From positions 1,950,061-1,982,060 of the forward strand of contig NZ_CM001976.1 of assembly GCF_000406145.1 (NCBI RefSeq): DNA of 32,000 nucleotides, in the 5' to 3' direction. The notes beneath the pieces are model-generated. The model worked only from the letters and a program-made list of their open reading frames with translations, did no database searches and was not told where the DNA came from. The stretch comes from Dickeya dadantii NCPPB 898. GTDB taxonomy: Bacteria > Pseudomonadota > Gammaproteobacteria > Enterobacterales > Enterobacteriaceae. This document shows, one piece after another, positions 7,297 to 31,795 of this stretch. The first letter of the stretch is position 1. Each line of letters starts with the position of its first letter. The position numbers were made by a program, and so were the translations under genes.

Positions 7297-7464
7297 CTTG
7301 CTGTTATTCATGCGTTTTTTCTGACAGGCGGCCAGTAAATCCCTATCATATCGTCGCCGTGGCCTGTTGGCTGCGGTGTGACAGACTGTGCCTGCACGTC
7401 GCATCGCGGCTAACGGTGCGTATGCAACGCAGCCTGACGTTTGATGATTCGATAAGGATGTGTG

Positions 7465-8631
7465 ATGAATAAAAAAATCATGGCGCTCGGCGCACTGCTG
7501 TTCCTGTCGCAGGCTTCGGCCGCGCCGGTCAGTATTGAGGTGCTTGACGCCACCATTAAAGATAAAAAAATCGCCGAGGCCGATGTGATGCTGCAACGCG
7601 ATGGCGCACAGACGGCGGTAGGGCGTACCAATGCGCTGGGGCAGGTGCAGTTGTCGCCGCCGTTCGCCGCCGATGAGAATGCCTTGCTGATTATCAAAAA
7701 GCCGGGATTTTCCAACCTGGTGGTCAAGTGCCCGTGCGACGGGCTGACCTACGCCATCAGCCCGGTGATGAAGAATCTGGACGGGATGCGTATCGTGCTG
7801 ACCTGGGGCGCGACGCCGGCCGACCTTGACTCGCATCTGGTCTATGGCAACAGCCATATCTATTTCGACAATCAAAAGGGACCGGACGCTAACCTGGATG
7901 TGGATGACGTCGACAGTTACGGCCCGGAAACCATCACCATCGAGAAAAAGCGTTTCGGCGAAAGTTACCTGTACGCGGTACACGACTACACGCATATTCA
8001 TGAGCCGGATCAGGCCGCACTCTCGAACAGTCAGGCGAAAGTATTCGTCTACGTCGGGCAGTCGCTGGTCAGAACCTATAGCGTGCCGCGCAATCAGGTC
8101 GGCAATCTGTGGACGGTATTCCGCCTGAACCCGAACGGCGATTTTGAAGATATCAACACCATCAAACAGACCGGCTATCAGGACCCCAATAACGTTGCCG
8201 CCGGGGTCAGCGGGCAGCTGTCCGGCCGGGCGGCGACCGGTACGGTCAACGTCAATCAGGCGGCGGCGAAAGCGCTGAACCGTCAGGGCGAAGACGCCTA
8301 CCGCCGCGGCGATCTGGAAAGCGCGATTGCGTTTTACCAGCAGGCGATTGAGCAGGATGCGGTATTCAGCCAGGCGTACAGTAATCTGGGGCTGGCTTAC
8401 CAGAAACTGGACCGCATCGCCGAAGCCATCTGGGCAAACCGTAAGGCGATCGCGCTGGCGGACGGGCCGAACGCGGCAACGGTGCGCGCCAGTTCCTACT
8501 ATAACATCGCCCGAATCTATGAAGCGGCCGGGCAACTGGACGACGCCCTGCGTCATTATCAGTTGGCCAAGGCGCAGAAAGACAGCGCCACCTACGATCA
8601 GGCTATCAGTCGCATCAAAAGTAAGCTGTAA
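7465..8631 (+). CDS. Secreted protein: N-terminal Ig-like/carboxypeptidase-regulatory-like segment, central DUF2135 (YfaP)-like domain, C-terminal TPR repeats (388 aa)
   Basis: ATG 7465 follows AAGGA (7454-7458); GTG 7462 is an alternative start. Signal peptide MNKKIMALGALLFLSQASA/AP. The central segment RIVLTWGATPADLDSHLVY...LDVDDVDSYGPETITI...YLYAVHDY resembles the DUF2135 pattern as I remember it. The C-terminus has three TPR-like units (AIAFYQQAIEQD..., YSNLGLAYQKLDRIAEAIWANRKAI, YYNIARIYEAAGQLDDALRHYQLA). Confidence 0.8.
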   Translation: MNKKIMALGALLFLSQASAAPVSIEVLDATIKDKKIAEADVMLQRDGAQTAVGRTNALGQVQLSPPFAADENALLIIKKPGFSNLVVKCPCDGLTYAISPVMKNLDGMRIVLTWGATPADLDSHLVYGNSHIYFDNQKGPDANLDVDDVDSYGPETITIEKKRFGESYLYAVHDYTHIHEPDQAALSNSQAKVFVYVGQSLVRTYSVPRNQVGNLWTVFRLNPNGDFEDINTIKQTGYQDPNNVAAGVSGQLSGRAATGTVNVNQAAAKALNRQGEDAYRRGDLESAIAFYQQAIEQDAVFSQAYSNLGLAYQKLDRIAEAIWANRKAIALADGPNAATVRASSYYNIARIYEAAGQLDDALRHYQLAKAQKDSATYDQAISRIKSKL

Positions 8632-11949: not shown

Positions 11950-13236
11950 ATGCGCTACTCTTACGTGTTCATGGCGGTGGCTTGCGCACTGGCGACAGTA
12001 CCGGCACAGGCCGCTTCCCGCAGCGATTCCCAATTGCCGCAAGTCAGCCTGTTGCAAACCACCACCGAGGCCAGCAACAGCGCCCCGGTCATTGAGATGC
12101 AGCAGCAGGTGCAGCAATACCTGCAAAAAGCCTTGCAGGGAGTCGCACCGAAGCTGACTCGCGCGGTGCTGGATAAAGCGCCGGATCAGGGAGAACCGCA
12201 GGGCGATATGAAATGGCTGAAAGCGACCGGTTACGTTTTCAACCCTAAAGATCAACAGCAGGCCAGCGTGAAACTGCTGGAAGGGTTCAGAACCCTGCCG
12301 GCGTCGGTGTTGCAGAAAAACCTGGCGACGGTTGAGCGCATCAATTTGGAGTCAACCCTGCCGCTGCGCCAGAAAGCGCTGATTGATGCGGAAAACACCC
12401 GCTATCTGTACGCGCTGGCGGAAGCGCTGGGGCCGAAGCTGGGCAAAGCGTTTCTCGATGTCTACCAGAAAGGCGAAATGGGTAAGGCCGCCGCGTTGAT
12501 CAAGGCTACCAATGTCAGCACGTCAGCGGCGAAAAACGCCTTTAACTACCCGCGGCCGTTCAAACAGCCGGGCAACAACATCCATCTGGTGCCGGATACC
12601 GCCGTCGTGGCGGATAACGCCCGTTATACGGCGTCGGGCGGTTCGTTCCCCAGCGGCCATACCAACGGCGGGTATAACGACGCGCTGTTGCTGGCGCAGA
12701 TGCTGCCGGAGCGTTTCGTGCCGCTGATTGACCGCGCCGCCACCTACGGCTATTCCCGCCTGGTGTTGGGGGTGCATTATCCGCTGGATGTGATCGGCGG
12801 TCGCATGGCGGCCGAGCGCAGCGTGGCGCATTTCCTGAACGACCCGAAATACCGCGTGCTGTTCAACGACGCCAAAACCCAGCTGCGTGCCGCGCTGGAA
12901 AAAGCCTGCGGCACGACGCTGGCCGAATGCGCCAAACCACAGGGTAGAAACGACCCTTACACCGACCCGGCGATGACGTCGTTCTACCGCTACACCATGA
13001 CCTACAATCTGCCGGTGGCGAAAGTGAAAGCCCAGCCGGTCAAGGTACCTGAAGGGGCGGAAGTGCTGCTGGAAGGGCCGTTGCCGCAGTTGAGCGCGGC
13101 CCAGCGCCGGGCGCTGATGGTAAAAACCGCGATAGCCGACGGCTATCCGCTCTCTTCCGGCGGGGTGGATGCCAACTTCTGGCAGCGCCTGAACCTGCAT
13201 GACGCGGTGGCAGCAGCGAAGACTGTAACCAAATAA
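11950..13236 (+). CDS. Secreted PAP2-superfamily acid phosphatase / haloperoxidase-like protein, long form, paralog 1 (428 aa)
   Basis: Signal peptide MRYSYVFMAVACALATVPAQA/AS. All three PAP2 motifs are present: KNAFNYPRP (K-x6-RP), PSGH, and SRLVLGVHYPLD (SR-x5-H-x3-D). AAAGGA RBS. Confidence 0.88.
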   Translation: MRYSYVFMAVACALATVPAQAASRSDSQLPQVSLLQTTTEASNSAPVIEMQQQVQQYLQKALQGVAPKLTRAVLDKAPDQGEPQGDMKWLKATGYVFNPKDQQQASVKLLEGFRTLPASVLQKNLATVERINLESTLPLRQKALIDAENTRYLYALAEALGPKLGKAFLDVYQKGEMGKAAALIKATNVSTSAAKNAFNYPRPFKQPGNNIHLVPDTAVVADNARYTASGGSFPSGHTNGGYNDALLLAQMLPERFVPLIDRAATYGYSRLVLGVHYPLDVIGGRMAAERSVAHFLNDPKYRVLFNDAKTQLRAALEKACGTTLAECAKPQGRNDPYTDPAMTSFYRYTMTYNLPVAKVKAQPVKVPEGAEVLLEGPLPQLSAAQRRALMVKTAIADGYPLSSGGVDANFWQRLNLHDAVAAAKTVTK

Positions 13237-13534: not shown

Positions 13535-14812
13535 ATGCGGTATCCTGTTGTTTTCATCGTAGTGACCTGTACGTTGGCGGTGTGGCAAGCGCAAGCCGCT
13601 GTTGATGGTGATGCGATTGTGCAGCAAATGAGTTTGCTGCAAACCACGACTCAAGCCAGTAGCAGTAAGCCGGTGGTCGATATGCAGCAGCGCGTGCAGC
13701 GATATTTGCAAAAAGCGTTGCAGGGAAGCGCGCCGCTGCTAACCCGCTCGGTGATGGATAACGCGCCCTACCTGAGCGAACCCTGGGATGATGTGAAGTG
13801 GCTGAAAGCGGCCAATTACCCCTTTAATTCCAAAGATCAGCAGCAGGACAGCATCCCGTTGCTGTCAGGATTCAACGCGCTGCCGGCAGATGTTTTGCAG
13901 GAGAATATGGCGACCGTGGAACGTATCAATCAGGACGCCTCACCCGCGTTGCAGCAAAAGGCGCTGATTGATGCGGAAAACACCCGTTACCTGTACGCGC
14001 TGGCGGAAGCACTGGGGCCGAAGTTGGGCGAGGCGTTTCTGGATGCGTATCAGCACGGTGAGATAGGCAAGGCCGCGGTGTTGATCAAAGCGTCCAATGT
14101 CAGTACGTCGGCGGCGAAAAATGCGTTTCATTATCCGAGGCCATTCCAGCAATCGGGCAATCGTATTCATCTGGTGCCGGATACCGCGGTAGTGATGGAT
14201 AACCAGCCTTATAAGGCTTTCGATGGGGCATTTCCCAGCGGCCATACCAGCGGCGGGTATAACGCCGCGTTACTGATGGGACAGATGCTGCCGGAACGTT
14301 TCGTGCCGCTGATTGACCGCGCCGCCACCTACGGTTATTCGCGCCTGGTGTTGGGGGTACATTATCCGCTGGATGTGATCGGCGGTCGCATGGCGGCCGA
14401 ACGCAGTGTGGCGCATATCCTGAACGACCCGGCATACCGCGTGCTGTTCAATGAAGCCAAAACCCAGTTGCGCGCCGCGCTGGAAAAAGCCTGCGGCACG
14501 ACGCTGGCCGAGTGCGCCAAACCGCAGGGTAAAAATGACCCCTACACCGACCCGGCAATGAAGTCGTTCTACCGCTACACCATGACCTACCACCTGCCGG
14601 AGGCGATAGTAGAAGCCCTGCCGCTCAAGGTGCCGGAAGGGGCGGAGGTGCTGCTGGAAGGGCCGTTGCCGCAGTTGAGCGCGGCCCAGCGCCGTGCGCT
14701 GATGATAAAAACCGCGATAGCTGACGGGTATCCGCTCTCCTCCGGCGACATGGACGCCAATTTCTGGCAGCGCCTGAACCTGCATGATGCGGTGGCCGCG
14801 GCGGAGCAATAA
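13535..14812 (+). CDS. Secreted PAP2-superfamily acid phosphatase / haloperoxidase-like protein, long form, paralog 2 (425 aa)
   Basis: Signal peptide MRYPVVFIVVTCTLAVWQAQA/AV. Motifs KNAFHYPRP, PSGH and SRLVLGVHYPLD are intact. The protein is collinear with paralog 1. AGGGGG RBS. Confidence 0.88.
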   Translation: MRYPVVFIVVTCTLAVWQAQAAVDGDAIVQQMSLLQTTTQASSSKPVVDMQQRVQRYLQKALQGSAPLLTRSVMDNAPYLSEPWDDVKWLKAANYPFNSKDQQQDSIPLLSGFNALPADVLQENMATVERINQDASPALQQKALIDAENTRYLYALAEALGPKLGEAFLDAYQHGEIGKAAVLIKASNVSTSAAKNAFHYPRPFQQSGNRIHLVPDTAVVMDNQPYKAFDGAFPSGHTSGGYNAALLMGQMLPERFVPLIDRAATYGYSRLVLGVHYPLDVIGGRMAAERSVAHILNDPAYRVLFNEAKTQLRAALEKACGTTLAECAKPQGKNDPYTDPAMKSFYRYTMTYHLPEAIVEALPLKVPEGAEVLLEGPLPQLSAAQRRALMIKTAIADGYPLSSGDMDANFWQRLNLHDAVAAAEQ

Positions 14813-20495: not shown

Positions 20496-21380
20496 TCAGG
20501 ACGAGGCAGATGATGTCGCGTTCTTTTTCGCGCTAAGCGTGGTGCCCAGCGAGGCGATAATAATAAACGCCAGCGCCAGCCACTGGGTGAGCGACAGGTG
20601 TTCGCCGAGAAAAAGAATGCCGGACATCGCCGCCACCGCGGGTTCCAGGCTCATCAGGGTGCTGAACGTACGCGCCGGTAAACGGGTTAGCGCCAGCATT
20701 TCCAGCGTATACGGCAGCGCGGTGGACAGCACCGCCACCGCTATACCTATCGGCAGAATACTGAGGGAAAATAGACTGTTGGTATCGGAAAACAGCAGGC
20801 CGATCGGACAATAGATCAGCGCGGCGATCAGCGAACCCATCGCCACGGTGCCGGCGCCGTGGTTGGCGCCGGCCTTCTGACCGAACAGGATATAACCCGC
20901 CCAGCAGGCGCCGGCGCCGGCGGCAAAGGCGGCGCCGGTTAAATCCACATTACCGATGTGCTGCCCGAGCGGCAACAACAACCACAGCCCGGCGGCGGCC
21001 AGCAATACCCACATGAAATCCAGCAGGCGGCGCGACGCCAGAATCGCGACCGCCAGCGGCCCGGTGAACTCCAGCGCCACCACGATCCCCAACGGTACGG
21101 TGCGCAGCGCCAGATAAAACAGATAGTTCATGCCGCCCAGCGTGATGCCGTAGACCAGCAGCGACAACCTGTCCGACCCAAAGCGCAGCCGCCAGGGCCT
21201 GAACACCACCAGCAGAATCAGCGCGCCTATCGCCAGGCGCAGTGCCGTCATGCCGGATGCGCCGATCAGCGGGAAAACCATCTTGGCCATCGCCGCGCCG
21301 GTCTGGATGGAAAGCATGGCGATGATGATCAGTAATACCGGCAGGAATACGGAGTTTTTTAATGCGGAAATCAAGGTCAT
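20496..21380 (-). CDS. rhtA: Threonine/homoserine exporter RhtA (DMT/EamA family) (294 aa)
   Basis: Collinear with E. coli RhtA (GMNYLFYLALRTVPLGIVVALEFTGPLAVA, LLLPLGQ..G.VDLTGAAFA.GAGACWA.YI, STALPYTLEMLALTRLP.RTF.TLMS.EPA.AA.SG). It sits between dps and ompX as in E. coli. Confidence 0.93.
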   Translation of the reverse strand: MTLISALKNSVFLPVLLIIIAMLSIQTGAAMAKMVFPLIGASGMTALRLAIGALILLVVFRPWRLRFGSDRLSLLVYGITLGGMNYLFYLALRTVPLGIVVALEFTGPLAVAILASRRLLDFMWVLLAAAGLWLLLPLGQHIGNVDLTGAAFAAGAGACWAGYILFGQKAGANHGAGTVAMGSLIAALIYCPIGLLFSDTNSLFSLSILPIGIAVAVLSTALPYTLEMLALTRLPARTFSTLMSLEPAVAAMSGILFLGEHLSLTQWLALAFIIIASLGTTLSAKKNATSSASS

Positions 21381-21527
21381 TGCAGGGCCTTAAAATTCAA
21401 TGTGCAACCAGAAAAAAGCAGGCAATAAATGAACAAATTATTCGAAGTTAGTTTACTCTTGTTGACCTTAATTTACTCTCCATTTGAAAATCTTTTTTTT
21501 GATATAAATTCAGCTTGAAAATTAATC

Positions 21528-21560
21528 AAAAAATTAAGAAAACTCCGCATCGAAGCGGAG
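21528..21560 (-). terminator. Orphan terminator-like hairpin inside the rhtA-ompX intergenic region (minus-strand orientation fits best)
   Basis: ctccgc (21543-21548) pairs with gcggag (21555-21560), with a 6-nt loop. The minus strand continues UUUUCUUAAUUUUUU. It lies 148 nt upstream of the rhtA ATG, and no annotated gene ends here. Confidence 0.4.
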
Positions 21561-21698
21561 CGATTCATTTATTTTTTCATACGTTCGTGAACTTTATTTT
21601 TCATTAAAAATCAATAATATAAATTGAAAATGAAATGAATTGTTACATGTTTAGCCTAATTGAAAAATAATAACCAGGCGGCATGTGCCCTAATTTTT

Positions 21699-21707
21699 TG
21701 TTATATT
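21699..21707 (+). promoter_or_regulatory. Candidate extended -10 promoter element of ompX (TGtTATATT)
   Basis: ttttTGtTATATTtgtc lies 45 nt upstream of the ompX ATG. The -35 is poor, which an extended -10 can tolerate. Confidence 0.35.
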
Positions 21708-21751
21708 TGTCTCGCTTAAATCTTCTTTCGTAAGATAATTCGAGGCATATT

Positions 21752-22267
21752 ATGAAAAAAATCGCGTGTCTTTCCGCTCTGGCTTGTGTTCTGGCCGTAA
21801 GCGCAGGTACTGCAGTGGCTGGCGACAGCACTGTATCTCTTGGTTATGCTCAGGGCGACGCTCAGGGCGTGCAAAACAAACTGCCGGGTTTCAACCTGAA
21901 ATACCGTTACGAATTCGATAACAGCCAGCTGGGCGTGGTAGGGTCTTTCACCTACCTGCAGGACAGCCAGACTGTTAACGGTACCTACGACAAAGCGCAG
22001 TACTACGGTTTCAGCGCCGGTCCGTCTTTCCGTTTCAACGACTGGGCGAGCATCTATGGCCTGGTTGGCGTGAGCGCGGCTAAATTCACCGCCAACAACA
22101 CCGACGGTTCTTCCAACAACAGCTCCAGCGATGCTGGCTTTGTCTACGGTGCCGGTCTGCAGTTCAACCCGGTTCAGAACGTAGCCTTTGACGTTGGTTA
22201 CGAGCAGAGCCGTATCCGCAGCGTTGACGTAGGCAGCTGGAACGTGGGCGTAGGCTACCGTTTCTAA
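21752..22267 (+). CDS. ompX: Outer membrane protein OmpX (8-stranded beta-barrel) (171 aa)
   Basis: MKKIACLSALACVLAVSAGTAVA signal peptide. GFNLKYRYE, GSFTY, NDWASIYG.VGV, YGAGLQFNP and YEQSRIRSVDVG.W..GVGYRF are collinear with E. coli OmpX. Confidence 0.97.
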   Translation: MKKIACLSALACVLAVSAGTAVAGDSTVSLGYAQGDAQGVQNKLPGFNLKYRYEFDNSQLGVVGSFTYLQDSQTVNGTYDKAQYYGFSAGPSFRFNDWASIYGLVGVSAAKFTANNTDGSSNNSSSDAGFVYGAGLQFNPVQNVAFDVGYEQSRIRSVDVGSWNVGVGYRF

Positions 22268-22930: not shown

Positions 22931-24106
22931 ATGTCACACGCAATTCGTGCAGGATCACTGTTTTTTGTCGTCATCACCATCATGTTGCTGGGGTTGAATC
23001 TTCGGCCGGTGCTGGCTGGCGTCGGGCCGCTGCTGTCGAGGATTCAGGCGGCGACCGGCATGGGGGATACGCAGGCTGGCTTATTGACTACGTTGCCGGT
23101 ATTCGCCATGGGAATCTGCGCCCTGTATGGCGGCTGGCTACAGACCCGACTGGGAGAATATCGCGGCATCGGTATCGGCATTGTCGGGATTGCGGTGGCC
23201 TGCCTGCTGCGGTGCTGGCTGACCAGCACCGCCGGGTTATTGCTGACCGCCGCGCTGGCCGGTATCGGCATTGCGCTGATTCAGGCGCTGATGCCGTCGT
23301 TTCTGCGCCGTAGCTTTAGCCGTCAAAGCAGCCGGCTTATGGGGTTGTACACCACAGCCATTATGGGCGGCGCGGCGCTGGCGGCAGCCAGTATCTCGCC
23401 GCTGGCGGACATCATGGACTGGGACGGCGCGCTGGCGATATGGGGCGCGCTGGCGACACTGGCGACGGTAGCCTGGCTGATTACGGTGTCGTTGAGTCCG
23501 ATGCCGGATAGCGCGACGCGTTCGGGGCCGGCGCCATCGCAGAATCGGGCCTGGGCGCTGATGATCTTTTTCGGCATCGGTACCGCCGCGTATACCCTGG
23601 TGCTGGCCTGGTTGCCGCCGTATTACACCCAGCTTGGCTGGAGCCCCGCCCGTAGCGGGTTATTGCTGGGTGGGCTGACGCTGACCGAAGTGGTGGCCGG
23701 GCTGCTGGTGTCGTTGCTGATTAACCGGTTCCCGGACCGGCGCTATCTGCTGCTGCCGGTATTGTTATTGCTGCTGCTGGGTATGGCCGGCTTGATACTG
23801 GCGCCGCAGACGCTGGTGTTGCCGATCATGATTGCGCTGGGGCTGGGTATCGGCGCGCTATTTCCGCTGTCGCTGATTATCGCGCTCGATCAAGTGGACG
23901 ACCCGCGTCAGGCGGGTGCGCTGATGGGGTTCGTACAAGGGGGCGGTTACCTGATCGCCAGCCTGATGCCGTTGCTGGCGGGTTTTATCCGGCAGTACAC
24001 CAGCGGTCTGGGGCAGGCCTGGTTGATCATGGCGGCGGGGGTGGGGGTGCTGATCCTGATGGCGCTGCGTTTCGCGCCGCGCCATCAGGTGTCGGCGTCG
24101 GCCTAA
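22931..24106 (+). CDS. MFS transporter, CynX/YeaN-like subfamily (391 aa)
   Basis: ORF 22865-24106 trimmed to ATG 22931 (AAGGAG at 22921-22926). About 12 predicted TM segments. The N-terminal LGLNLRPVLAGVGPLL motif resembles the CynX family. Confidence 0.85.
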   Translation: MSHAIRAGSLFFVVITIMLLGLNLRPVLAGVGPLLSRIQAATGMGDTQAGLLTTLPVFAMGICALYGGWLQTRLGEYRGIGIGIVGIAVACLLRCWLTSTAGLLLTAALAGIGIALIQALMPSFLRRSFSRQSSRLMGLYTTAIMGGAALAAASISPLADIMDWDGALAIWGALATLATVAWLITVSLSPMPDSATRSGPAPSQNRAWALMIFFGIGTAAYTLVLAWLPPYYTQLGWSPARSGLLLGGLTLTEVVAGLLVSLLINRFPDRRYLLLPVLLLLLLGMAGLILAPQTLVLPIMIALGLGIGALFPLSLIIALDQVDDPRQAGALMGFVQGGGYLIASLMPLLAGFIRQYTSGLGQAWLIMAAGVGVLILMALRFAPRHQVSASA

Positions 24107-25017
24107 CGGCGTGATAACGCCAACTGCGGCGTCAGGAACAGGTTGCGGAAGTATTCCCGAACCGCCTGCATCGCCGGGGTAAACTCGGCGTCATGATACC
24201 AGGCCAGCCCGACGCTCATCGGGTGAACCCGGTCTTTCAGCGATCGGGTTTCGATACGCCGCCCCTCAAGCGACCAGGGGCGGTACACCAGATCGGACAA
24301 AATCGCCACGCCCAGTCCGTTCGCCACCATACTGCGCACCGCCTCCACTGAGCTGGTGCGCAGCATCACCTTCGGGCGATGCCCACTCAATTCCCAATAG
24401 CGCATGGCGCTGTGATCCGCTTCATCCACCGTCAGCATGATAAAGGGCTCGTTGGCGACATCCGCCAGGCTCACCTCCGGCTTGTCGCACAACGGGTGGC
24501 GGCTGGGCAGCCATAGCCGCCGCTCCGAATTAAACAGGGGTTCGGCGGTAATTTCCGGGTGGGTAATGTTGGCGGTCAGCACCAGCGATAAGTCCAGAGA
24601 ACGATCCAGCAACCCGGTTTCGATATCCTGCCGCTCGCGTTCGTTGAGATGAATGGCGACGTGAGGAAAGCCGTATGACAGTCGCTGCAGATGAAACGGC
24701 AGAAAATACCCCATCACCGTGTAGCTGGCGGCCATGTTCAGCGAACCGGCGATGCGGTTGTCGGTCAGCGGAATATGCATGGCGTCATCCACGCTGCGCA
24801 GCACGGCGTAGGCGTGATTAAGGAAGTAGCTGCCGTTTTCGGTCAGCGTCATGCCATGCACCGAACGCAGGAACAGCGGCTTTCCCAGCAGGTTTTCCAG
24901 TTCCTGAATCGCGCTGGTCACCGCCGATTGTGAAATATTGAGGTGGATCGCCGCCTGGGATATCTGGCCTGTCTCCGCGGTGGCGATGAAGTAGCGAATC
25001 TGACGCAATGTGACCAT
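24103..25017 (-). CDS. LysR-family transcriptional regulator (304 aa)
   Basis: The N-terminal HTH is MVTLRQIRYFIATAETGQISQAAIHLNISQSAVTSAIQELENLLGKPLFLR, followed by a LysR substrate-binding domain. It diverges from the pxpA-like operon. Its stop codon overlaps the stop of the convergent MFS gene. Confidence 0.92.
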   Translation of the reverse strand: MVTLRQIRYFIATAETGQISQAAIHLNISQSAVTSAIQELENLLGKPLFLRSVHGMTLTENGSYFLNHAYAVLRSVDDAMHIPLTDNRIAGSLNMAASYTVMGYFLPFHLQRLSYGFPHVAIHLNERERQDIETGLLDRSLDLSLVLTANITHPEITAEPLFNSERRLWLPSRHPLCDKPEVSLADVANEPFIMLTVDEADHSAMRYWELSGHRPKVMLRTSSVEAVRSMVANGLGVAILSDLVYRPWSLEGRRIETRSLKDRVHPMSVGLAWYHDAEFTPAMQAVREYFRNLFLTPQLALSRR

Positions 25018-25046
25018 GGCATACCCCTTATCGGCGAGCGTTCTGT

Positions 25047-25072
25047 TTTTCAGATAGCAAGCATTCTGAAAA
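25047..25072. promoter_or_regulatory. 8-bp inverted repeat TTTTCAGA-N10-TCTGAAAA in the 127-bp LysR/operon divergent region; candidate LysR-type binding site
   Basis: Read directly (25047-25054 and 25065-25072). It lies 30 bp from the LysR start and 73 bp from the pxpA-like ATG. A dyad with an A/T-rich core in a divergent promoter region is the usual LTTR arrangement. Confidence 0.55.
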
Positions 25073-25144
25073 TACGTCTTTCCGAATAGAAAATTGTGGT
25101 TCTATATTATTTTTAAACAAAACCATCACAAATAAGAAATAATT

Positions 25145-25927
25145 ATGAAATATGAAATCGATCTGAATTCCGATATGGGAGAAAACTTTGGTCCCTGGAA
25201 AATAGGCGATGACGTTGATCGGGAGATTATGTCTTATATAAGTTCTGCCAATATTGCCGCCGGATTTCACGCCGGCGATCCCACCACTATACGGCAGACT
25301 ATTGAATGGGCCAATGAGTATGGCGTCGCGGTCGGCGCGCATCCCGGATTTCGCGATCTGGTCGGCTTTGGCCGGCGGCATATTCATAGCCAGCCGCAGG
25401 AAGTGGTGAATGACATTTTGTATCAGCTCGGGGCGCTGCGGGAATTTACCCGGCTGTACCAATTACCGTTACAGCACGTCAAACCGCACGGCGCGCTGTA
25501 TATGCATCTGGCGCGCGATCGGCCGTCCGCGCAGCTGTTTGTGGAAACCCTGCACCGGCTGGACCCCGAATTACGGCTGTTTTGCCTGCACGGCTCATGG
25601 ACCTGGCAGGAAGCAAAAAGACTACAACACCCTGTTATTTGTGAATTTTATGGCGACAGAGAGTACGACGCCAGCGGCTCGATCGTCTTTACCCGCCGGG
25701 TGGGCGAGCTGGACCCGGCGCGGGTGGCGGAGAAAGTAGTGCGCGCCTGTGTGGAAGGCAAAGTGACGACGGTCGATGGTGAAGATATTCACGTCGAGTT
25801 CGAGTCGATTTGTATTCACAGCGATACGCCCGGCGCGCTGGCATTAATTAAAGCGACCCGGGAGGCATTGAATAACGCCAATATTCGTGTGCGTTCGCCA
25901 TTGCGGAATAGTTTTAATAATCGGTAA
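25145..25927 (+). CDS. LamB/YcsF-family protein (5-oxoprolinase subunit A, PxpA-like) (260 aa)
   Basis: [55 protein letters not shown] and CIHSDTPGA are hallmark LamB/YcsF motifs. Confidence 0.9.
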
Positions 25928-25956
25928 TTGATAAATAATTATAAGGATTGAGGCTA

Positions 25957-26205
25957 ATGAAAACATATGAGGTTTGTTCTCCTTTACCGGGTGTTTTTTA
26001 TCGTCAGCCCGCACCGGACGCCCCTGCATTTATTGAAGAAAATACCCCGGTTACCGCAAATAGCGTTATTGGGTTGGTCGAGGTGATGAAACAGTTCAGT
26101 GAAATTTATGCGGAGCAGGCTGGCGAATTAATATCGTTCTGCGTGAATAGCGGCGATGCGCTGGAGCCGGGTCAGGTCATAGCCATCATAAAAATCGATG
26201 AATAA
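25957..26205 (+). CDS. Minimal biotin carboxyl carrier protein (biotinyl domain only, 82 aa)
   Basis: ORF 25948-26205 (TTG) trimmed to ATG 25957 (AAGGA at 25944-25948). The biotinyl-lysine context is GLVEVMKQFSEI. The beta-hammerhead-like flanks SPLPGVFY and PGQVIAII fit the biotinyl/lipoyl fold. Confidence 0.85.
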   Translation: MKTYEVCSPLPGVFYRQPAPDAPAFIEENTPVTANSVIGLVEVMKQFSEIYAEQAGELISFCVNSGDALEPGQVIAIIKIDE

Positions 26206-26258
26206 CGGTAAAACCTACAACACAGCCTAATAACCACTCAATCAGGAGAGAGGCGAAG

Positions 26259-27644
26259 ATGCGTCAGCCGATCAGAAAATTGCTTATCGCCAACCGGGGG
26301 GAAATTGCCGTTCGCATTATTCATGCCGCCCGTAGTCTGGGGATTGCCACGGTAGCCGCCTGCAGCGAGGCCGATGCCGATTCGCTGCCCGCGCGTCTGG
26401 CGGATGAAACGGTACTGCTGGGGCCGGCGCGCGCCGACCAGAGTTACCTGAATCAGGCGGCGTTGTTGCAGGCGGCCAAAGACAGCGGAGCGGATGCGGT
26501 ACATCCGGGATACGGTTTTCTGTCCGAGAATGCGGCATTCGCCGAGGCGGTAGAGCAGGCTGGGCTGGTGTTCGTCGGCCCGACGGCGGAAACCATTCGC
26601 ATGATGGGCGACAAAGCGGCGGCGCGGCGCACCGCGCAGGCGGCGGGGGTTCCGGTTGTACCCGGCTCAGGGGTGTTGTCGTCGCTGGCGGCGGCGTTAC
26701 AGGCCGCCGAAGAGATTGGCTACCCGTTGCTGATCAAGGCGTCTGCTGGCGGCGGCGGGCGCGGTATCCGGGTCGTCAACCATGAGGATGACCTGAAACG
26801 CGAGTTTCCGATCGCCCAGAGCGAAGCGAGAGCGGCGTTCGGGTGCGGCGATGTTTATCTGGAGCTGTTTATTCGCCATGCCCGCCATATCGAAGTGCAA
26901 ATTCTGGGCGACGGCGAGCGGGCGGTGCACCTGTATGAGCGTGAGTGTTCGTTGCAACGCCGTCGCCAGAAGGTCTTTGAAGAGGCGCCGTCGCCGGCGT
27001 TGACGTCGACACAGCGCGAGGCGTTGTGCCGCAGCGCCCTGCAACTGGCGCAACAGTTGCGCTACCGCAGCGCCGGGACGCTGGAATACCTGTTCGATAC
27101 CGAGCGGGAACAGTTCTATTTTATCGAAATGAACACCCGCATTCAGGTCGAACACCCGGTTACGGAGCGGGTGACCGGCGTCGATCTGGTGCAGTGGATG
27201 CTGCGCATCGCCGGCGGCGAACCGCTTAGCCTGCATCAGGAGGCGATCGCGCTGCACGGGCATGCCTGTGAGATGCGCATCAACGCAGAAGATCCGGCAC
27301 GTAATTTCTTCCCTTGTCCCGGCGTGGTAGACACGCTGACGTGGCCGCAAGGCCCCGGTATTCGTATCGACAGCCATCTGTTTAGCGGTTACCGCGTCCC
27401 GCCGTATTACGACTCCCTGCTGGCCAAAGTGGTGGTATCCGGACCGACGCGCCAGCAGACGCTGGCTCGTGCCGAGCAGGCGCTGAACCAGTTGCGAATC
27501 GGCGGCATCACCACCACGCAGTCATTGCACCAATGGCTGCTGGCGGATACCCGGTTGCGCGCCGGACACTTTGATACCACCTCGCTGGAAAGCTGGCTAC
27601 AGGCGCGAGAAGCCGAATCACTGTCGCTGTCGAAGGAGGCCTGA
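26259..27644 (+). CDS. Biotin carboxylase (ATP-grasp; AccC-like paralog) (461 aa)
   Basis: KLLIANRGEIAVRIIHAARSLGI, HPGYGFLSEN, MGDK..AR, YPLLIKASAGGGGRGIRVV, IEVQILGD, RECSLQRRRQKVFEEAP and FIEMNTRIQVEHPVTE are canonical biotin carboxylase motifs. Confidence 0.93.
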   Translation: MRQPIRKLLIANRGEIAVRIIHAARSLGIATVAACSEADADSLPARLADETVLLGPARADQSYLNQAALLQAAKDSGADAVHPGYGFLSENAAFAEAVEQAGLVFVGPTAETIRMMGDKAAARRTAQAAGVPVVPGSGVLSSLAAALQAAEEIGYPLLIKASAGGGGRGIRVVNHEDDLKREFPIAQSEARAAFGCGDVYLELFIRHARHIEVQILGDGERAVHLYERECSLQRRRQKVFEEAPSPALTSTQREALCRSALQLAQQLRYRSAGTLEYLFDTEREQFYFIEMNTRIQVEHPVTERVTGVDLVQWMLRIAGGEPLSLHQEAIALHGHACEMRINAEDPARNFFPCPGVVDTLTWPQGPGIRIDSHLFSGYRVPPYYDSLLAKVVVSGPTRQQTLARAEQALNQLRIGGITTTQSLHQWLLADTRLRAGHFDTTSLESWLQAREAESLSLSKEA

Positions 27645-27645
27645 C

Positions 27646-28530
27646 ATGACCTTTCCTGCAATACGCTACACCTTCGGCGGCGATGAGCACCTGTTCGCCG
27701 AGATTGACGAAGCGATGTCGCTGGGCGCGTTTTTCCGCGGGCTGGCGATGACCCGTGCGCTGGAGCAACTGGCGCTGCCCGGCGTGCTGGATATTTGCCT
27801 GGCTAATGCATCCTTTCAGGTGCGCTTCAATCCGGATGTTATCGCGCCGCAGGCGCTGCTGGAGACGGTACAACGTACCGAACAGCAGGCACAGACGATG
27901 ACGGTGCTCGACACGCGTATCATCGAAATTCCGGTGCTGTACAACGACCCCTGGACCCACGACACCCTGATGCGGTTCCGCGATCGTCATCAGGAGCCGA
28001 CGGCTACCGACCTGGAATATGCCGCGCGCATCAACGGCTATCAGGATGTGGCGGCGTTTATTGCGGCGCACAGCGGCACGCCGTGGTTTGTGTCGATGGT
28101 GGGATTCGTGGCGGGATTGCCGTTCATGTTTCAGATGGTGGAGCAGGCGCAGCAGTTACAGGTGCCGAAATACCTGCGGCCGCGCACCGACACCCCCAGA
28201 CTGTCGCTGGGGCACGGCGGTTGTTTCGGCTGTATCTACTCGGTGCGGGGCGCGGGCGGCTACCAGCTGTTTGGCGTCACCCCAGCGCCGATTTACGACC
28301 CGGAACAACGTCTGGATTATCTGCAATCGTCGATGGTGTTTTTCCGCTCGGGCGACATCGTGCAGTTTAAACCTATCGATCTGGCGCGCTATGAACAGGA
28401 CGTACAGGCGGTTGACGCCGGCAGCTTCAGCCTGCGCATTCGTCCGGTAACGTTCGAACTGGATAAGTTCCTCGCCGACCCGACCGGCTATAAACACTAT
28501 CTTCAGGAGGTGCTGTATGCAGGTATCTAG
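27646..28530 (+). CDS. PxpB/KipI-like protein (carboxyltransferase subdomain C-D; former allophanate hydrolase subunit 1) (294 aa)
   Basis: ORF 27571-28530 trimmed to ATG 27646 (GGAGG at 27635-27639; the start is 1 nt after the biotin carboxylase stop). F.VRFNP, IEIPV.Y, GF..G.PF and cyclophilin-like C-terminal features are typical of the AHS1/CT_C_D family. It is longer than E. coli PxpB (about 220 aa from memory). Confidence 0.85.
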   Translation: MTFPAIRYTFGGDEHLFAEIDEAMSLGAFFRGLAMTRALEQLALPGVLDICLANASFQVRFNPDVIAPQALLETVQRTEQQAQTMTVLDTRIIEIPVLYNDPWTHDTLMRFRDRHQEPTATDLEYAARINGYQDVAAFIAAHSGTPWFVSMVGFVAGLPFMFQMVEQAQQLQVPKYLRPRTDTPRLSLGHGGCFGCIYSVRGAGGYQLFGVTPAPIYDPEQRLDYLQSSMVFFRSGDIVQFKPIDLARYEQDVQAVDAGSFSLRIRPVTFELDKFLADPTGYKHYLQEVLYAGI

Positions 28531-29527
28531 CGAGCGGATCATATCTAGCGTGCGGATCAATGTCATCCGGCCGGGGCTGGCGACCTCAGTACAAGATGGC
28601 GGGCGCGAAGGCTATTACCACCTGGGCATTCCGCCGTCCGGCGGGCTGGATCAGTATTCGCTGCGGCTGGCGAATTTGCTGGTGGGCAACCCGGCGCAGG
28701 CCGCCGTACTGGAAATGACGTTGCTGGGACCGGAATTGCAGTTTGAAGGCGATGCGCTGGTGGCGGTGTGCGGCGCGCGGATGTCGCCGTTGCTGGACGG
28801 CATGGCGATGCCGCTGGATACCACGTTTGCGGTGCGCGCCGGTCAGGTGCTGCGGTTTACGCCGACCACGGCCGGGTGCCGCGCCTATCTGGCGGTGGCG
28901 GGCGGCATTGCGGTGCCGGAGGTGCTGGACAGCCGCTCGACCTATGCGCTCGGTGCGCTGGGCGGTTATCAGGGGCGCCGGCTGGCCGCCAATGATGTAC
29001 TGCCGGTCGGCGTGCCGTCACACCAGGTCACGCCGGAAGTGACGGTGCCCGCCGACTGTCTCCAGCCGCTGGACAAGCAGGTGACGTTACGCATGGTGAC
29101 CGGGTTGTACATTCACCGGCTGACCCCGGCGGCGGTAGAACAGTTTTTTGCCGACGACTGGCGGGTCGGCACCGAAGCCGACCGCATCGGCTACCGGCTC
29201 AAAGGCGGGGCGCCGCTGGCGTTTGAGCCGCGCACGCCGCCGTTTGGCGCCGGCTCGGATCCATCCAACATTGTCGATGCCTGCTACCCCATCGGCTCGG
29301 TGCAGGTGCCGGGCGGTCTGGAGCCGATCATTCTGCTGCGCGATGCGGTGTCCGGCGGCGGTTACATGACGCTGGGGACGGTGATCAGCAGCGATCTGGA
29401 CATCATCGGGCAGTTGCAACCCCATTACGGCGTTCGTTTTGCGCCCGTATCGCTGGAGGAGGCGCTGGTCGCCCGGCAACACTATCGCCGCCGTCTTGAG
29501 CGGCTGACGCTGTTGTTAACAAACTGA
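28517..29527 (+). CDS. PxpC/KipA-like protein (carboxyltransferase subdomain A-B; former allophanate hydrolase subunit 2) (336 aa)
   Basis: AGGAGG (28505-28510), then ATG 28517, with a 14-nt overlap with the preceding gene. RPGLATSVQDGGR.GY...G.P.SG..D, LE.T..GP and TEADRIGYRL.G......E......G.VQVP..G.PIIL..D....GGY are hallmark AHS2/CT_A_B motifs. Confidence 0.88.
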   Translation: MQVSSERIISSVRINVIRPGLATSVQDGGREGYYHLGIPPSGGLDQYSLRLANLLVGNPAQAAVLEMTLLGPELQFEGDALVAVCGARMSPLLDGMAMPLDTTFAVRAGQVLRFTPTTAGCRAYLAVAGGIAVPEVLDSRSTYALGALGGYQGRRLAANDVLPVGVPSHQVTPEVTVPADCLQPLDKQVTLRMVTGLYIHRLTPAAVEQFFADDWRVGTEADRIGYRLKGGAPLAFEPRTPPFGAGSDPSNIVDACYPIGSVQVPGGLEPIILLRDAVSGGGYMTLGTVISSDLDIIGQLQPHYGVRFAPVSLEEALVARQHYRRRLERLTLLLTN

Positions 29528-29619
29528 TGTTAACGAACTGATGTTAACAAACTGATGTTAACGAACGGATATTAAAGAACAGATGTTAACAAACAGAGGT
29601 TAGCGCACTGATTTCAGAC
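29508..29619. repeat. Tandem array of about 7-8 copies of a 14-bp unit (consensus AACTGATGTTAACR), degenerating toward the 3' end. It overlaps the last codons and stop of the PxpC-like gene.
   Basis: Units read directly: cgctgttgttaaca, aactgatgttaacg, aactgatgttaaca, aactgatgttaacg, aacggatattaaag, aacagatgttaaca, aacagaggttagcg, cactgatttcagac. There are five GTTAAC palindromes (TGTTAACA in three units). Confidence 0.9.
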
Positions 29620-29681
29620 GGTCCCGCCGATTTTCCCTGCGCCAACACCAGGAACGGCAACGGCGGCGGGACATCGTCTGA
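29614..29681 (+). other. Long imperfect stem-loop (7 + 9 bp with a 2-nt bulge) immediately after the repeat array
   Basis: tcagacg-gtcccgccg (29614-29629) pairs with cggcgggac-at-cgtctga (29664-29681), enclosing a 34-nt loop. No U-tract follows. Confidence 0.5.
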
Positions 29682-29746
29682 CATACCGGACCACGTAAGC
29701 GACCGTGCGGCTTTTGCCGCGGCGGCGGACGGGTTCGGCCATAACG

Positions 29747-29795
29747 CATGCCGCCACGTTGTATCAGGTGGTATTGGTGTGACGCCGGCGGCATG
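29747..29795 (+). other. Second 9-bp GC-rich stem-loop in the leader of the permease gene
   Basis: catgccgcc (29747-29755) pairs perfectly with ggcggcatg (29787-29795), with a 31-nt loop. It ends 32 nt before ATG 29827 and overlaps the alternative GTG start at 29779. Confidence 0.45.
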
Positions 29796-29826
29796 TCATC
29801 AAATACGGGTCTGTGGAGGGGTTGCG

Positions 29827-31131
29827 ATGGCTGAGGTATCTGATGTTCAGGGGGCAGCGGCGGCATCGCCTGCCGATACGGTGTCCGGCACCGAGCGCAT
29901 GGGAAAACTGTCGCTGACCATGGCCTGGTGGGCGGTGTGCAGCGCGATTTTCTATATTGTGGTGGGGGCGTCGCTGGCGCTGAATTACGGCGCGCGCAAT
30001 GCCATTATCGGTATGGTGCTATCCGTCGTGTGCTACGGTTTGATCAACGCGGCCATTAGCCGTTTCGCTATTCGCAGCGGTCTGTCGGTGGCGGCGTTTT
30101 CCGGCCAGTTGTTCGGTCAGGCGGGGTCGGCGCTGGCGACGCTGATTTTTTTCTCCACCGCCATTTATTACGCGGTGTTTGAAGGCTCGGTGATTGCGTT
30201 CGCCATCAATCATCTGTTCCCGGCGCTGGATTATCACTGGGCCGCGTTGCTGGTGGTGCTCTACAGCGTGCCGCTGATTTTCGGTAGCGTGCAGCACTGG
30301 CTGGACAAGTTCAACGGCGTGCTGCTACCGTTTTACCTGCTCGGGCTGGCGCTGACGGTGACGGTGTCCGTCCAGCATTACGGCTATCAGCCGCAATGGC
30401 TGTCATTCGGCCCGGCATCGCCGCCCGCCTATGGTTGGTGGAACTGCTTCACCTACTACATGGGGGTGTGGATTTTAATGATGTACACCTTCGACTACGC
30501 CCGCTTCGGCCGTCAGGAAGACAGTCAGTATCATGCACGCATCAATTTCGGTATGCCGTTCTATCTGATCACGTTTCTGTTAAACGGGGTGGTCGGTATC
30601 TATCTGGTCAGCAGTTTTGCCCAACAGAACGGCGTCAGTGAAACCGCGGTGGTGGTCAACATCCTCAATCTGCTCGGTTTCTGGGGGCTGTTGTTCGTGT
30701 GGGTGACCCAGACACGCATCAATACCGCCAACTATTATCTGGCGACCGTCAACATGCAGGTGTTTTTTGACCGCCTGCTGCGGCTACGCTATCGCAAGAT
30801 TGTCTGGGCCTGCGTGGTGGGGGCGGCGGTCTATGTGCTGATGCTGGCGGATGTGTTCGCCTATATTTTGCAGGCGCTGGCTTATCAGGGGGTATTTGTG
30901 GTGGCGTGGGTCGGCGTGGCGCTGGCGCATATTCTGGCCCGCCGCGCCTCATCGACTACGGCGCCGGTGCGTGCGTTGAATCTGACCGGCCTGGGCGCCT
31001 GGCTGCTGAGTGTGATCGCCGGCGTTGCGCTGATGCACGGCAACGCGGTGCTACAGGCGTTTTCCGCACCGGCGACCTTTGTTGTGGCGCTGGCGTTGTA
31101 TTGGCTGTTGCCGCATAACCGTAGCGCCTGA
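29827..31131 (+). CDS. Integral membrane permease, probably purine-cytosine/NCS1-like family (434 aa from ATG 29827)
   Basis: ORF 29779-31131. ATG 29827 is preferred (GGAGGG at 29815-29820). GTG 29779 is possible (AGGTGG at 29765-29770). About 12 hydrophobic segments. The N-terminal MAWWAVCSAIFYIVVGASLA...ISRFAIRSGLSVAAFSGQLFG resembles CodB/NCS1-type permeases; that family call is from memory only. Confidence 0.8.
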   Translation: MAEVSDVQGAAAASPADTVSGTERMGKLSLTMAWWAVCSAIFYIVVGASLALNYGARNAIIGMVLSVVCYGLINAAISRFAIRSGLSVAAFSGQLFGQAGSALATLIFFSTAIYYAVFEGSVIAFAINHLFPALDYHWAALLVVLYSVPLIFGSVQHWLDKFNGVLLPFYLLGLALTVTVSVQHYGYQPQWLSFGPASPPAYGWWNCFTYYMGVWILMMYTFDYARFGRQEDSQYHARINFGMPFYLITFLLNGVVGIYLVSSFAQQNGVSETAVVVNILNLLGFWGLLFVWVTQTRINTANYYLATVNMQVFFDRLLRLRYRKIVWACVVGAAVYVLMLADVFAYILQALAYQGVFVVAWVGVALAHILARRASSTTAPVRALNLTGLGAWLLSVIAGVALMHGNAVLQAFSAPATFVVALALYWLLPHNRSA

Positions 31132-31217: not shown

Positions 31218-31260
31218 GAAGGAATGAGAGCAAGACAAAGCTGTTGCCTTGCGGTTTGCA

Positions 31261-31293
31261 CTTTTGAATGTGGGTATGACGAATATTCAGGAG
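31261..31293 (+). promoter_or_regulatory. FourU-type RNA thermometer candidate sequestering the Shine-Dalgarno sequence of the small heat-shock gene
   Basis: CUUUUGAAU (31261-31269) pairs with AUUCAGGAG (31285-31293): C-G, U-A, U.G, U.G, U-A, G-C, A-U, A-U, U-A. Four consecutive U therefore pair with AGGA of the SD (AGGAGG 31289-31294; ATG 31301). The loop is 15 nt. Confidence 0.6.
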
Positions 31294-31300
31294 GTTAACC

Positions 31301-31795
31301 ATGGCATTCAAATCGATGTCTTTATTTCCGGCTGTTACCGACTCGCTGTTCTCCGACCGCTTCAACCGCATCGATCGGTTATTCAGCCAACTGACCGGCG
31401 ATACGCCGCTCACCGCTACGCCATCCTACGACATCCGCCGGCTTGACGACACTCACTATGGCATTACGGTCAGCGTGCCCGGCTGGCGTGAGGAGGATCT
31501 GGAGATCAGTACGCATGGCGGCCAGCTCACTATCAGCGGCAAACGTAAGGAAGAGGTGTCGGAAGCGGAGCAGGAGCAGGAGCAGGAGGGCTGGCTTTAT
31601 CGTGGCATCAGCCACACTGATTTCAGCATCAGCTATGCTCTGCCGGAGCATGTCAATGTGGAAAGCGCGCATCTGGAAAATGGCCTGCTGACCGTCACGT
31701 TAAAGCAGGATATCCCGGAAAACGAAAAGCCGAAAAAAATTGCCATTGAAAACCGTAATCAGACGGGGACTCAGGCATTGGAACACGAACATTAA
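31301..31795 (+). CDS. Small heat-shock protein, Hsp20/alpha-crystallin family (AgsA/IbpA-like) (164 aa)
   Basis: Alpha-crystallin domain: YDIRRLDDTHYGITVSVPGWREEDLEISTHGGQLTISGKR...WLYRGISHTDFSISYALPEHVNVESAHLENGLLTVTL. C-terminal PKKIAIE (I-x-I) motif. There is an acidic EEVSEAEQEQEQEG insertion. Confidence 0.92.
   Translation: MAFKSMSLFPAVTDSLFSDRFNRIDRLFSQLTGDTPLTATPSYDIRRLDDTHYGITVSVPGWREEDLEISTHGGQLTISGKRKEEVSEAEQEQEQEGWLYRGISHTDFSISYALPEHVNVESAHLENGLLTVTLKQDIPENEKPKKIAIENRNQTGTQALEHEH

Follow-up and report, generated by a model that had tools for sequence, protein, structure and literature searches.

A LysR-linked operon of Dickeya dadantii probably joins a split urea-carboxylase-type biotin enzyme to the hydrolysis of a small gamma-lactam

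Five tightly packed genes on one strand of the Dickeya dadantii NCPPB 898 genome diverge from a LysR-type regulator gene and are followed downstream by a permease gene. The locus lies in a stretch of 32,000 nucleotides (contig NZ_CM001976.1, positions 1,950,061 to 1,982,060; hereafter the window, whose own numbering is used throughout). The regulator, a LysR-type activator and predicted butyrolactam sensor, is encoded at 24103-25017 on the minus strand (Pfam HTH_1 and LysR_substrate), and an operator-like palindrome, the likely LysR recognition site, follows at 25047-25072. The plus strand then carries a PxpA-like LamB/YcsF gene for a predicted lactam-ring amidohydrolase (25145-25927; PF03746), a gene for an 82-residue biotin carboxyl carrier protein (BCCP) consisting of a biotinyl domain only (25957-26205; PF00364, NF005457), an ATP-grasp biotin carboxylase (BC) gene (26259-27644; three BC domains, NF009471), a gene for a long, 294-residue PxpB-like carboxyltransferase (27646-28530; PF02682, CT_C_D) and a PxpC-like carboxyltransferase gene (28517-29527; PF02626, CT_A_B). 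Beyond them are a 14-bp minisatellite, probably non-functional (29510-29602), and a divergent NCS1-fold permease gene for a predicted lactam importer (29827-31131, plus strand). Here we describe evidence that the biotin proteins of this locus act together with its Pxp-like proteins, and that the whole is probably a catabolic operon for a small gamma-lactam.

This arrangement had been set out in a first-pass annotation made from the DNA letters, and it has held up: open reading frames (ORFs) are present at all the coordinates given there, and the gene junctions and profile hidden Markov model (HMM) assignments agree with it. The permease and the PxpB-like protein each match D. dadantii database entries at 100% identity. 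Direct reading of the sequence shows the TGA stop of the BC gene followed, after a single base, by the ATG of the PxpB-like gene, with AAGGAGG upstream; the PxpB-like gene is translationally coupled to the BC gene. Another AGGAGG lies six bases upstream of the PxpC-like ATG at 28517, where the two carboxyltransferase-like genes overlap by 14 nucleotides (nt). A profile search found no amidase-signature gene in the window, and the remaining window genes are unrelated to the operon. A guanidine or other riboswitch was rejected because no Rfam match at E <= 1 was found within the operon, including its two intergenic regions. Local GC content is 49.5% at 25001-26000 against about 60% in the flanks, an interval that spans the lysR-pxpA gap, pxpA and the BCCP gene.

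The enzyme subunits belong to families related to, and separable from, those of housekeeping and canonical enzymes. The PxpA-like protein matches LamB_YcsF (PF03746) with 294 bits in the profile-HMM search and passes the PxpA subfamily model NF003814 (290 bits, cutoff 226), is below cutoff in all four PxpA equivalog models, and is 35% identical to Escherichia coli PxpA and 63-69% identical to its Pseudomonas orthologues. The BCCP matches Biotin_lipoyl and NF005457 (109 bits, cutoff 87), and the lysine of its E-x-M-K motif, invariant in 7 sequences, aligns with K122, the residue of E. coli AccB that carries biotin. As first noted, it is without the N-terminal half of AccB: the alignment covers only AccB residues ~79-156, the N-terminal 78 residues being absent, and the accB equivalog fails (TIGR00531, 63.5 against 115.2). 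The BC scores 838 bits with NF009471 (cutoff 686) and is 50% identical to E. coli AccC; it too fails the housekeeping equivalog (accC, TIGR00514, 594.6 against 626.5), and BC and BCCP pass the distinct models PRK12833 and PRK07051. With E. coli AccC as the reference, K116, K159, H209, K238, E276, E288, N290, R292, E296 and R338 are all invariant, so that on these alignments the catalytic residues of the BC, like the biotinylation motif of the BCCP, are intact.

The two carboxyltransferase-like proteins lean toward urea carboxylase. The best NCBIfam match of the PxpB-like protein is to urea_carbox (residues 800-1077), and the only full-length alignment that the protein gives is to Kluyveromyces lactis urea carboxylase (836-1114); it fails the PxpB equivalog (TIGR00370, 68.0 against 145.55) and is 25% identical to E. 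coli PxpB, against 75-78% to Pseudomonas orthologues. The PxpC-like protein matches PF02626 (301 bits) and exceeds the TIGR00724 cutoff, fails the PxpC equivalog (NF045499, 217.3 against 500) and is 37% identical to E. coli PxpC, scoring 188 bits with K. lactis urea carboxylase against 166 bits with E. coli PxpC. Its closest solved structure is urea carboxylase (3VA7, residues 478-789 aligned), and the NCBI name for its family is 'biotin-dependent carboxyltransferase family protein'. By homology, then, the PxpB-like protein is the counterpart of urea carboxylase subdomains C-D and the PxpC-like protein that of subdomains A-B. Pfam detects no ATP-binding family in either protein; only the carboxyltransferase families CT_C_D and CT_A_B match. 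Urea carboxylase of K. lactis (3VA7, 5I8I) has all four module types encoded in Dickeya (BC, carboxyltransferase A-B, carboxyltransferase C-D and BCCP). It is a single polypeptide acting on urea, however, whereas the Dickeya modules are split over four genes, and its partner is an amidase-signature allophanate hydrolase where that of the Dickeya modules is a LamB/YcsF protein; the best window ORF reaches 544 with the urea carboxylase model TIGR02712 and fails its cutoff of 1303.85.

The permease, called NCS1-like in the first-pass annotation, most likely starts at ATG 29827, which has GGAGG upstream, rather than at the alternative GTG 29779. It has no significant Pfam, NCBIfam or PDB sequence match; its match to the NCS1 family PF02133 is below the Pfam cutoff (13.4 against 23.5 bits, E = 0.034), spans profile positions 10-418 of 440, and is matched by precomputed PF02133 assignments on several of its orthologues. 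An AlphaFold2 (AF2) model (pLDDT 79, pTM 0.80) has as its top Foldseek matches in the PDB CodB (7QOA) and Mhp1 (2X79, 4D1A, 2JLN), with TM scores of 0.65-0.76, and because these are the best structural matches the NCS1-like label is right at the level of the fold.

The spacer between pxpC and the permease gene does contain repeats, as had been noted: a 14-bp tandem repeat, CTGATGTTAACAAA, runs for 6.6 copies over 29510-29602 (TRF score 116), with 5 matches where 0.08 are expected. The array begins inside the 3' end and stop region of pxpC, and every unit contains GTTAAC and a TGA. It is not a conserved element, however, but a species-variable minisatellite, with 6.6 copies in the D. dadantii window, 2.9 in D. 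undicola and none in D. oryzae (compared at L001 9882-9922 and L002). A regulator-binding array was rejected because copy number varies in this way among the three Dickeya species; more probably the pxpC 3' end gave rise to a minisatellite that is neutral. The spacer shows no convincing terminator or promoter and no Rfam match.

The 8-bp inverted repeat reported in the gap between lysR and pxpA is present, with perfect arms, as TTTTCAGA-N10-TCTGAAAA at 25047-25072, about 30 nt from the lysR start codon. When up to one mismatch is allowed, 55 of 79 orthologous intergenic regions (most of them 104-130 nt long) have its core, TCAGA-N10-TCTGA, at an equal distance from lysR; among shuffled controls the figure is 4 of 1580. 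The regulator itself is 66-71% identical to Pseudomonas regulators adjoining pxpA. The palindrome is therefore likely, given this conservation, to be an operator and the putative LysR recognition site.

How far the cassette extends was assessed in a scan of species-representative genomes, which returned 80 loci. BC and BCCP lie inside 35 of the 80 pxpABC-like loci, as LysR<>PxpA-BCCP-BC-PxpB-PxpC, in Dickeya, Brenneria, Pectobacterium betavasculorum, Lonsdalea, Acerihabitans and about 22 Pseudomonas; the remaining 45 loci come without exception from Pseudomonas and are LysR<>PxpA-PxpB-PxpC only. The permease follows in 28 of the 35 loci with BC/BCCP and in none of the 45 without, and a Paraburkholderia contig has the full seven-gene layout, permease included. 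The four core proteins are 62-78% identical to those of the Pseudomonas loci and form one clade with them. The cassette is conserved across beta- and gammaproteobacteria, and its architecture is not rare.

Outside this clade, distant members of the long-PxpB subfamily (30-48% identity) occur in clusters that contain all five modules in a different order (L086/87 and L091), and in one relative (P0297, encoded in L082) the BC is fused to a PxpB-like CT_C_D domain. The L091 cluster also carries aldehyde-dehydrogenase and class-III aminotransferase genes (GabD/GabT-like), which by annotation would be the expected route for an omega-amino-acid product. These associations bear on one alternative, namely that the adjacency is coincidental and that BC/BCCP are a second acetyl- or acyl-CoA carboxylase unrelated to the Pxp-like genes. 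NCBI does name both proteins 'acetyl-CoA carboxylase', but both fail the accC and accB equivalog cutoffs, the window has no AccA/AccD-type carboxyltransferase gene, the BC and PxpB-like genes are translationally coupled, and the linkage is kept across gene orders and even, in one case, as a gene fusion. We regard mere coincidence as scarcely credible.

Other distant long-type PxpB/PxpC pairs were observed in further settings. One is accompanied by BCCP only, together with an Opp-like ABC transporter (L088 5540-7846); one lies beside the biotin transporter BioY (L085 651-2283); and one adjoins genes of HyuA/HyuB-type ATP-dependent hydantoinase/oxoprolinase, with no biotin genes (L092 6001-11983).

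The first-pass annotation knew of no biochemically characterized example of this architecture. Pseudomonas aeruginosa PA0492-PA0496 has the same annotated order as Dickeya (LamB/YcsF, biotin-requiring enzyme, acyl-CoA carboxylase subunit and two hypotheticals), a correspondence that is one of annotation. PA0492-0495 transcripts drop together on ParB overproduction, and PA0493-0496, described as an operon, are expressed at a level more than 6-fold lower in a sigX mutant. PA0494, which shares 55% identity with AccC, is a separate gene from accC (PA4848), and P. aeruginosa has both pairs. The function of PA0492-0496 was reported as unknown in papers of 2017-2018.

A second comparison leads to the substrate. 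The Dickeya regulator and the PxpA-, PxpB- and PxpC-like proteins are about 68, 65, 76 and 67% identical, respectively, to those of a Pseudomonas putida-group locus, L030, in which a divergent LysR gene is followed by A, B ('unknown function') and, last, C ('urea amidolyase-related'). This is the arrangement of PP_2919-PP_2922 of P. putida, where lysR is likewise divergent from the enzyme genes, and differs from that of PP_4575-4579, whose order is C, B, A, x, LysR. The L030 intergenic region carries TCAGA..TCTGT at an offset matching the Dickeya box. Missing from the P. putida-group locus are three genes that Dickeya has, those for BCCP, BC and the permease.

For PP_2919-2922 the genetics are known. 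Use of butyrolactam (2-pyrrolidinone) as a nitrogen source specifically requires PP_2920-2, a 'pxpABC paralogue'; mutants in PP_2919-2922 have fitness values of -3.8 to -5.1 on butyrolactam and ~0 elsewhere, and an in-frame deletion of PP_2920-2 abolishes growth on butyrolactam, which complementation restores (Schmidt et al., bioRxiv 10.1101/2021.12.09.472016). The LysR-family regulator PP_2919 has fitness values of -4.6/-3.8 on butyrolactam only, and a PP_2919-dependent promoter reporter responds ~900-fold at 50 uM butyrolactam (bioRxiv 10.1101/2021.12.09.472016); in P. putida this regulator and its operator already serve as a very sensitive biosensor for 2-pyrrolidinone. PP_4575-7 encodes another enzyme, the 5-oxoprolinase, and PP_2920-2 cross-complements neither with the 5-oxoproline system nor with that for valerolactam (bioRxiv 10.1101/2021.12.09.472016). 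Because the LysR-PxpABC core of Dickeya is orthologous (65-76%) to loci of the PP_2919-2922 type, its substrate, which the first-pass annotation held could not be deduced from sequence, can be proposed: the orthology makes 2-pyrrolidinone the most likely substrate and gamma-aminobutyric acid (GABA) the most likely product. That annotation had also asked whether homologous clusters already have a defined substrate and mechanism; the substrate is known, the mechanism is not.

The same machinery could in Dickeya act on a different imported cyclic amide or ureide, such as 5-oxoproline, hydantoin, a dihydropyrimidine-like compound or a plant-derived lactam, but we think this rather improbable. An NCS1-type permease would fit such a substrate, as its closest structural relatives carry cytosine and hydantoins and P. 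putida has no permease at its locus; the LysR ligand could also have shifted at 66-71% identity. The catalytic subunits, however, are 65-78% identical to those of the P. putida enzyme, which is specific and does not cross-complement for 5-oxoproline or valerolactam, the operator is conserved, layouts that have BC/BCCP and layouts that lack it are intermixed within a single orthologous clade, and the canonical PxpB and PxpC equivalog thresholds fail.

Schmidt et al. treat the P. putida enzyme as a three-subunit lactam hydrolase. The core is thus genetically known in P. putida, and what is undescribed is its link to biotin. A neighbor-joining (NJ) tree of PxpA+B+C nests the three-gene layout within the five-gene layout, polyphyletically, with the two interleaved. 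In two comparisons of three-gene loci with their nearest complete relatives (L080 with L053, L034 with L054), the leftover pxpA-pxpB spacer aligns to the pxpA-BCCP gap plus the first ~40 nt of the BCCP gene, from which it follows that BCCP-BC was cleanly deleted. The alignments indicate that such deletions in Pseudomonas are recent and independent as well as clean, and P. putida KT2440 is apparently among the strains that underwent one.

We re-analyzed the KT2440 fitness table in the supplement of bioRxiv 10.1101/2021.12.09.472016, which derives from pooled random-barcode transposon sequencing (RB-TnSeq) with two replicates. Over 23 other nitrogen sources, bioB fitness follows how far pyruvate carboxylase is required (r = 0.94). 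Its most negative value, -3.28, is the one on butyrolactam, where -0.09 is predicted, a residual of 11 standard deviations (SD), and bioF, bioH, bioC and bioD are outliers of 3.4-4.5 SD in the same direction. The effect is absent on GABA, valerolactam, caprolactam and hydantoin, and unrelated auxotrophs are not exaggerated on butyrolactam. Mutants in pyruvate carboxylase and methylcrotonyl-CoA carboxylase (MCC) are neutral on butyrolactam, so that a non-essential donor of BC/BCCP in KT2440 was rejected; the essential AccB and AccC have no transposon mutants in these data. The main text of the preprint (bioRxiv 10.1101/2021.12.09.472016) does not mention biotin. Though indirect as evidence, the bio-gene pattern is as would be expected of a lactam-opening step that itself needs biotin. 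With the five modules kept, and in one case fused, in distant relatives, the functional coupling of BC/BCCP to the PxpABC-like proteins looks real.

A rival to this coupling is that the PxpABC-like proteins suffice by themselves as an ATP-dependent butyrolactam hydrolase that needs no biotin, to which BC/BCCP are a dispensable accessory (for example, boosting the rate or recapturing CO2) or a relic. In its favor, clean losses of BCCP-BC have occurred repeatedly in Pseudomonas without visible relaxation of constraint on PxpA/B/C, PP_2920-2 alone restores growth of the deletion mutant, and phosphorylation of the lactam by PxpBC with ATP is what the literature takes for granted. Yet in a strain apparently without dedicated BC/BCCP five bio genes show a butyrolactam-specific defect, for which no non-essential biotin enzyme accounts; the five-module association recurs in distant lineages, including as a gene fusion; the catalytic residues of BC and BCCP are strictly conserved, which speaks against a relic; and no ATP-binding family is detected in PxpB/PxpC, which match carboxyltransferase families only. 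On balance we consider a biotin-independent hydrolase unlikely. Strains without the dedicated pair would instead use housekeeping AccB/AccC in trans, and in that way the BCCP-BC deletions are reconciled with the conserved linkage.

Taken together, these observations make it probable that the Dickeya locus is a LysR-activated catabolic operon through which a small gamma-lactam, most likely 2-pyrrolidinone (butyrolactam), is taken up and, in an energy-driven reaction, hydrolyzed to GABA. In the scheme we propose, the NCS1-type permease would bring the lactam into the cell, where it would be sensed by the LysR protein, which would activate the divergent promoter through the TCAGA-N10-TCTGA box. 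The biotin carboxylase would use ATP and bicarbonate to carboxylate biotin on the 82-residue BCCP, and the PxpC/PxpB-like pair, as a split urea-carboxylase-type carboxyltransferase, would transfer the carboxyl group to the lactam nitrogen, yielding an activated N-carboxy-lactam. The PxpA-like metallo-amidohydrolase would then open the ring, and the resulting carbamate would lose CO2 to give GABA. The net reaction would be lactam + ATP + H2O -> GABA + ADP + Pi, with bicarbonate catalytic. The scheme would parallel urea carboxylase plus allophanate hydrolase, in which, on the same logic, an amide is N-carboxylated by carboxybiotin and then hydrolyzed. We infer both that N-carboxylation is the activating chemistry and that the permease is co-transcribed with the operon. 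The proposal that BC, BCCP and the PxpB- and PxpC-like proteins form a split urea-carboxylase-type carboxylase, working with a PxpA-like lactamase and a permease, was already part of the first-pass annotation; it is now supported by conservation of the cassette, the reordered modules and the fusion, the intact residues, the likeness to urea carboxylase and the biotin requirement in P. putida.

Several points weigh against this interpretation. PP_2920-2 alone complements in P. putida (bioRxiv 10.1101/2021.12.09.472016), and BCCP-BC, as well as the permease, has been repeatedly deleted in Pseudomonas with the constraint on PxpABC unchanged, so that dedicated BC/BCCP are dispensable at least in P. 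putida. A relaxed or remodeled PxpB/PxpC after loss of BC/BCCP was looked for and not seen, 150 of the 154 PxpB positions invariant in the layout with BC/BCCP being kept in the layout without. The bio-gene outliers could reflect some other biotin need specific to butyrolactam. The substrate in Dickeya is proposed from orthology at 65-76% identity, and we infer that L030 is the PP_2919-2922 locus from gene order and annotation, not from alignment to the KT2440 sequence. The 300-nt spacer separates pxpC from the permease gene, so their co-transcription is presumptive, and no GABA-catabolic genes adjoin the operon in the Dickeya window. No biochemical precedent for N-carboxylation of a lactam was found in the literature. 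Full-text literature searching, outside whose reach many subscription papers lie, likewise found no report linking a biotin carboxylase to the hydrolysis of pyrrolidinone or to Pxp-type lactam hydrolysis, and it returned no match for PP_2925 together with mqo.

Canonical PxpABC (E. coli YbgJKL, and that of Bacillus subtilis and Corynebacterium glutamicum) shares three families with the Dickeya enzyme, depends on ATP to open a gamma-lactam into an amino acid and, as in Dickeya, is often accompanied by a dedicated transporter and regulator. It differs in that its PxpB is short (218 amino acids), without the urea-carboxylase-like C-terminal region of the Dickeya protein, its operon has no BC/BCCP and its substrate is 5-oxoproline. 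Hydrolysis of 5-oxoproline has a Keq of ~0.035 (PMC13012033), and coupling to ATP is needed because lactam hydrolysis is unfavorable. The first-pass annotation took the biotin independence of canonical PxpABC as established. In the literature consulted it is an assumption and not a demonstrated fact: PxpBC is assumed to phosphorylate the lactam with ATP, and because that mechanism is itself called 'assumed' (PMC13012033), biotin independence is not firmly established.

This leaves room for a wider possibility, which we advance tentatively and hold to be less likely than its opposite: that PxpB/PxpC-type proteins in general are carboxybiotin-dependent carboxyltransferases, and that Pxp-type lactamases, possibly including canonical 5-oxoprolinase, are coupled to ATP through BC and N-carboxylation of the lactam rather than by PxpBC consuming ATP itself, with AccB/AccC borrowed by those systems that have no BC/BCCP of their own. 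The mycobacterial pair MSMEG_0435-0436 (Rv0263c-Rv0264c; 3MML, 9YX5) is informative here. In a 2026 cryo-EM study this PxpC/PxpB-like heterodimer grips the biotin of the AccA3 BCCP, the biotin being 'positioned to participate in a carboxylation reaction' (PMC13012033), and it is a precedent for borrowing BC-BCCP in trans. Its published reading is different, as a regulator of LCC, the long-chain acyl-CoA carboxylase, with no substrate or catalytic activity known, and it resembles the Dickeya proteins less closely (54 and 112 bits). Were the general carboxyltransferase reading true, the complex of MSMEG_0435-0436 with LCC would be an enzyme borrowing its carrier and not a pure regulator.

The mycobacterial work also suggests a converse interpretation for Dickeya, in which the PxpB/PxpC-like pair would be no enzyme but a regulator keeping biotinylated BCCP sequestered, the role proposed for MSMEG_0435-0436 on LCC, or for KipI/KipA. 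By cryo-EM the PxpC/B homologues do sequester BCCP biotin, and they lower propionyl-CoA carboxylase activity (PMC13012033). Orthologues of the Dickeya pair, however, are genetically required for the catabolism of one specific nitrogen source, the genes stand together with those for a hydrolase, a transporter and an activator that senses the substrate, and the cluster contains no acyl-CoA carboxyltransferase partner; sequestration is a very improbable role for them.

A eukaryotic parallel to the Dickeya set may exist in the lamA and lamB genes of Aspergillus nidulans. The lamA product is probably a urea-amidolyase-like biotin protein; if that likeness holds, the five bacterial genes would correspond to the fungal pair in unfused form. 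LamB, from which the LamB/YcsF (PxpA) family was founded, is required by A. nidulans to grow on 2-pyrrolidinone (PMC3412718). Neither lamA nor lamB is mentioned in Strope 2011.

If the lactam N-carboxylation proposed for the Dickeya operon is correct, it would be a new type of reaction in biotin enzymology, in which N-carboxylation of a lactam drives its hydrolysis, and the enzyme would be a bacterial multi-subunit counterpart of urea amidolyase. A function would be provided for a cassette now annotated as 'acetyl-CoA carboxylase / allophanate hydrolase / hypothetical', covering Dickeya and its relatives, many Pseudomonas, Paraburkholderia and apparently PA0492-0496. The source of the ATP dependence of Pxp-type lactamases, in whose PxpB and PxpC no ATP-binding family is detected, would be explained, and the essential AccB/AccC would be shareable with carboxyltransferases outside lipid synthesis. 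A five-subunit enzyme with its importer could improve bioconversion of lactam, a nylon-4 monomer, and in a plant pathogen such an operon may tie in with the GABA and polyamine chemistry of host tissue.

Elsewhere in the window, tandem paralogous PAP2-superfamily genes of about 425 codons each lie at 11950-13236 and 13535-14812 on the plus strand. At 7210-8556 on the minus strand is a 448-amino-acid ORF with no Pfam match, overlapped on the opposite strand by one of 389 amino acids; either may be real. Local GC content is 46.9% at 21001-22000, against about 60% in the flanks, in the region of an OmpX/Ail-like gene. Just downstream of the permease gene, a sub-threshold Rfam match to the FourU RNA thermometer (31233-31307, plus strand; 29.9 bits against a gathering threshold of 60, E = 0.011) overlaps the 5' untranslated region and start of an HSP20/IbpB-like gene (31301-31795), for which a heat-shock RNA thermometer is plausible from the sequence.

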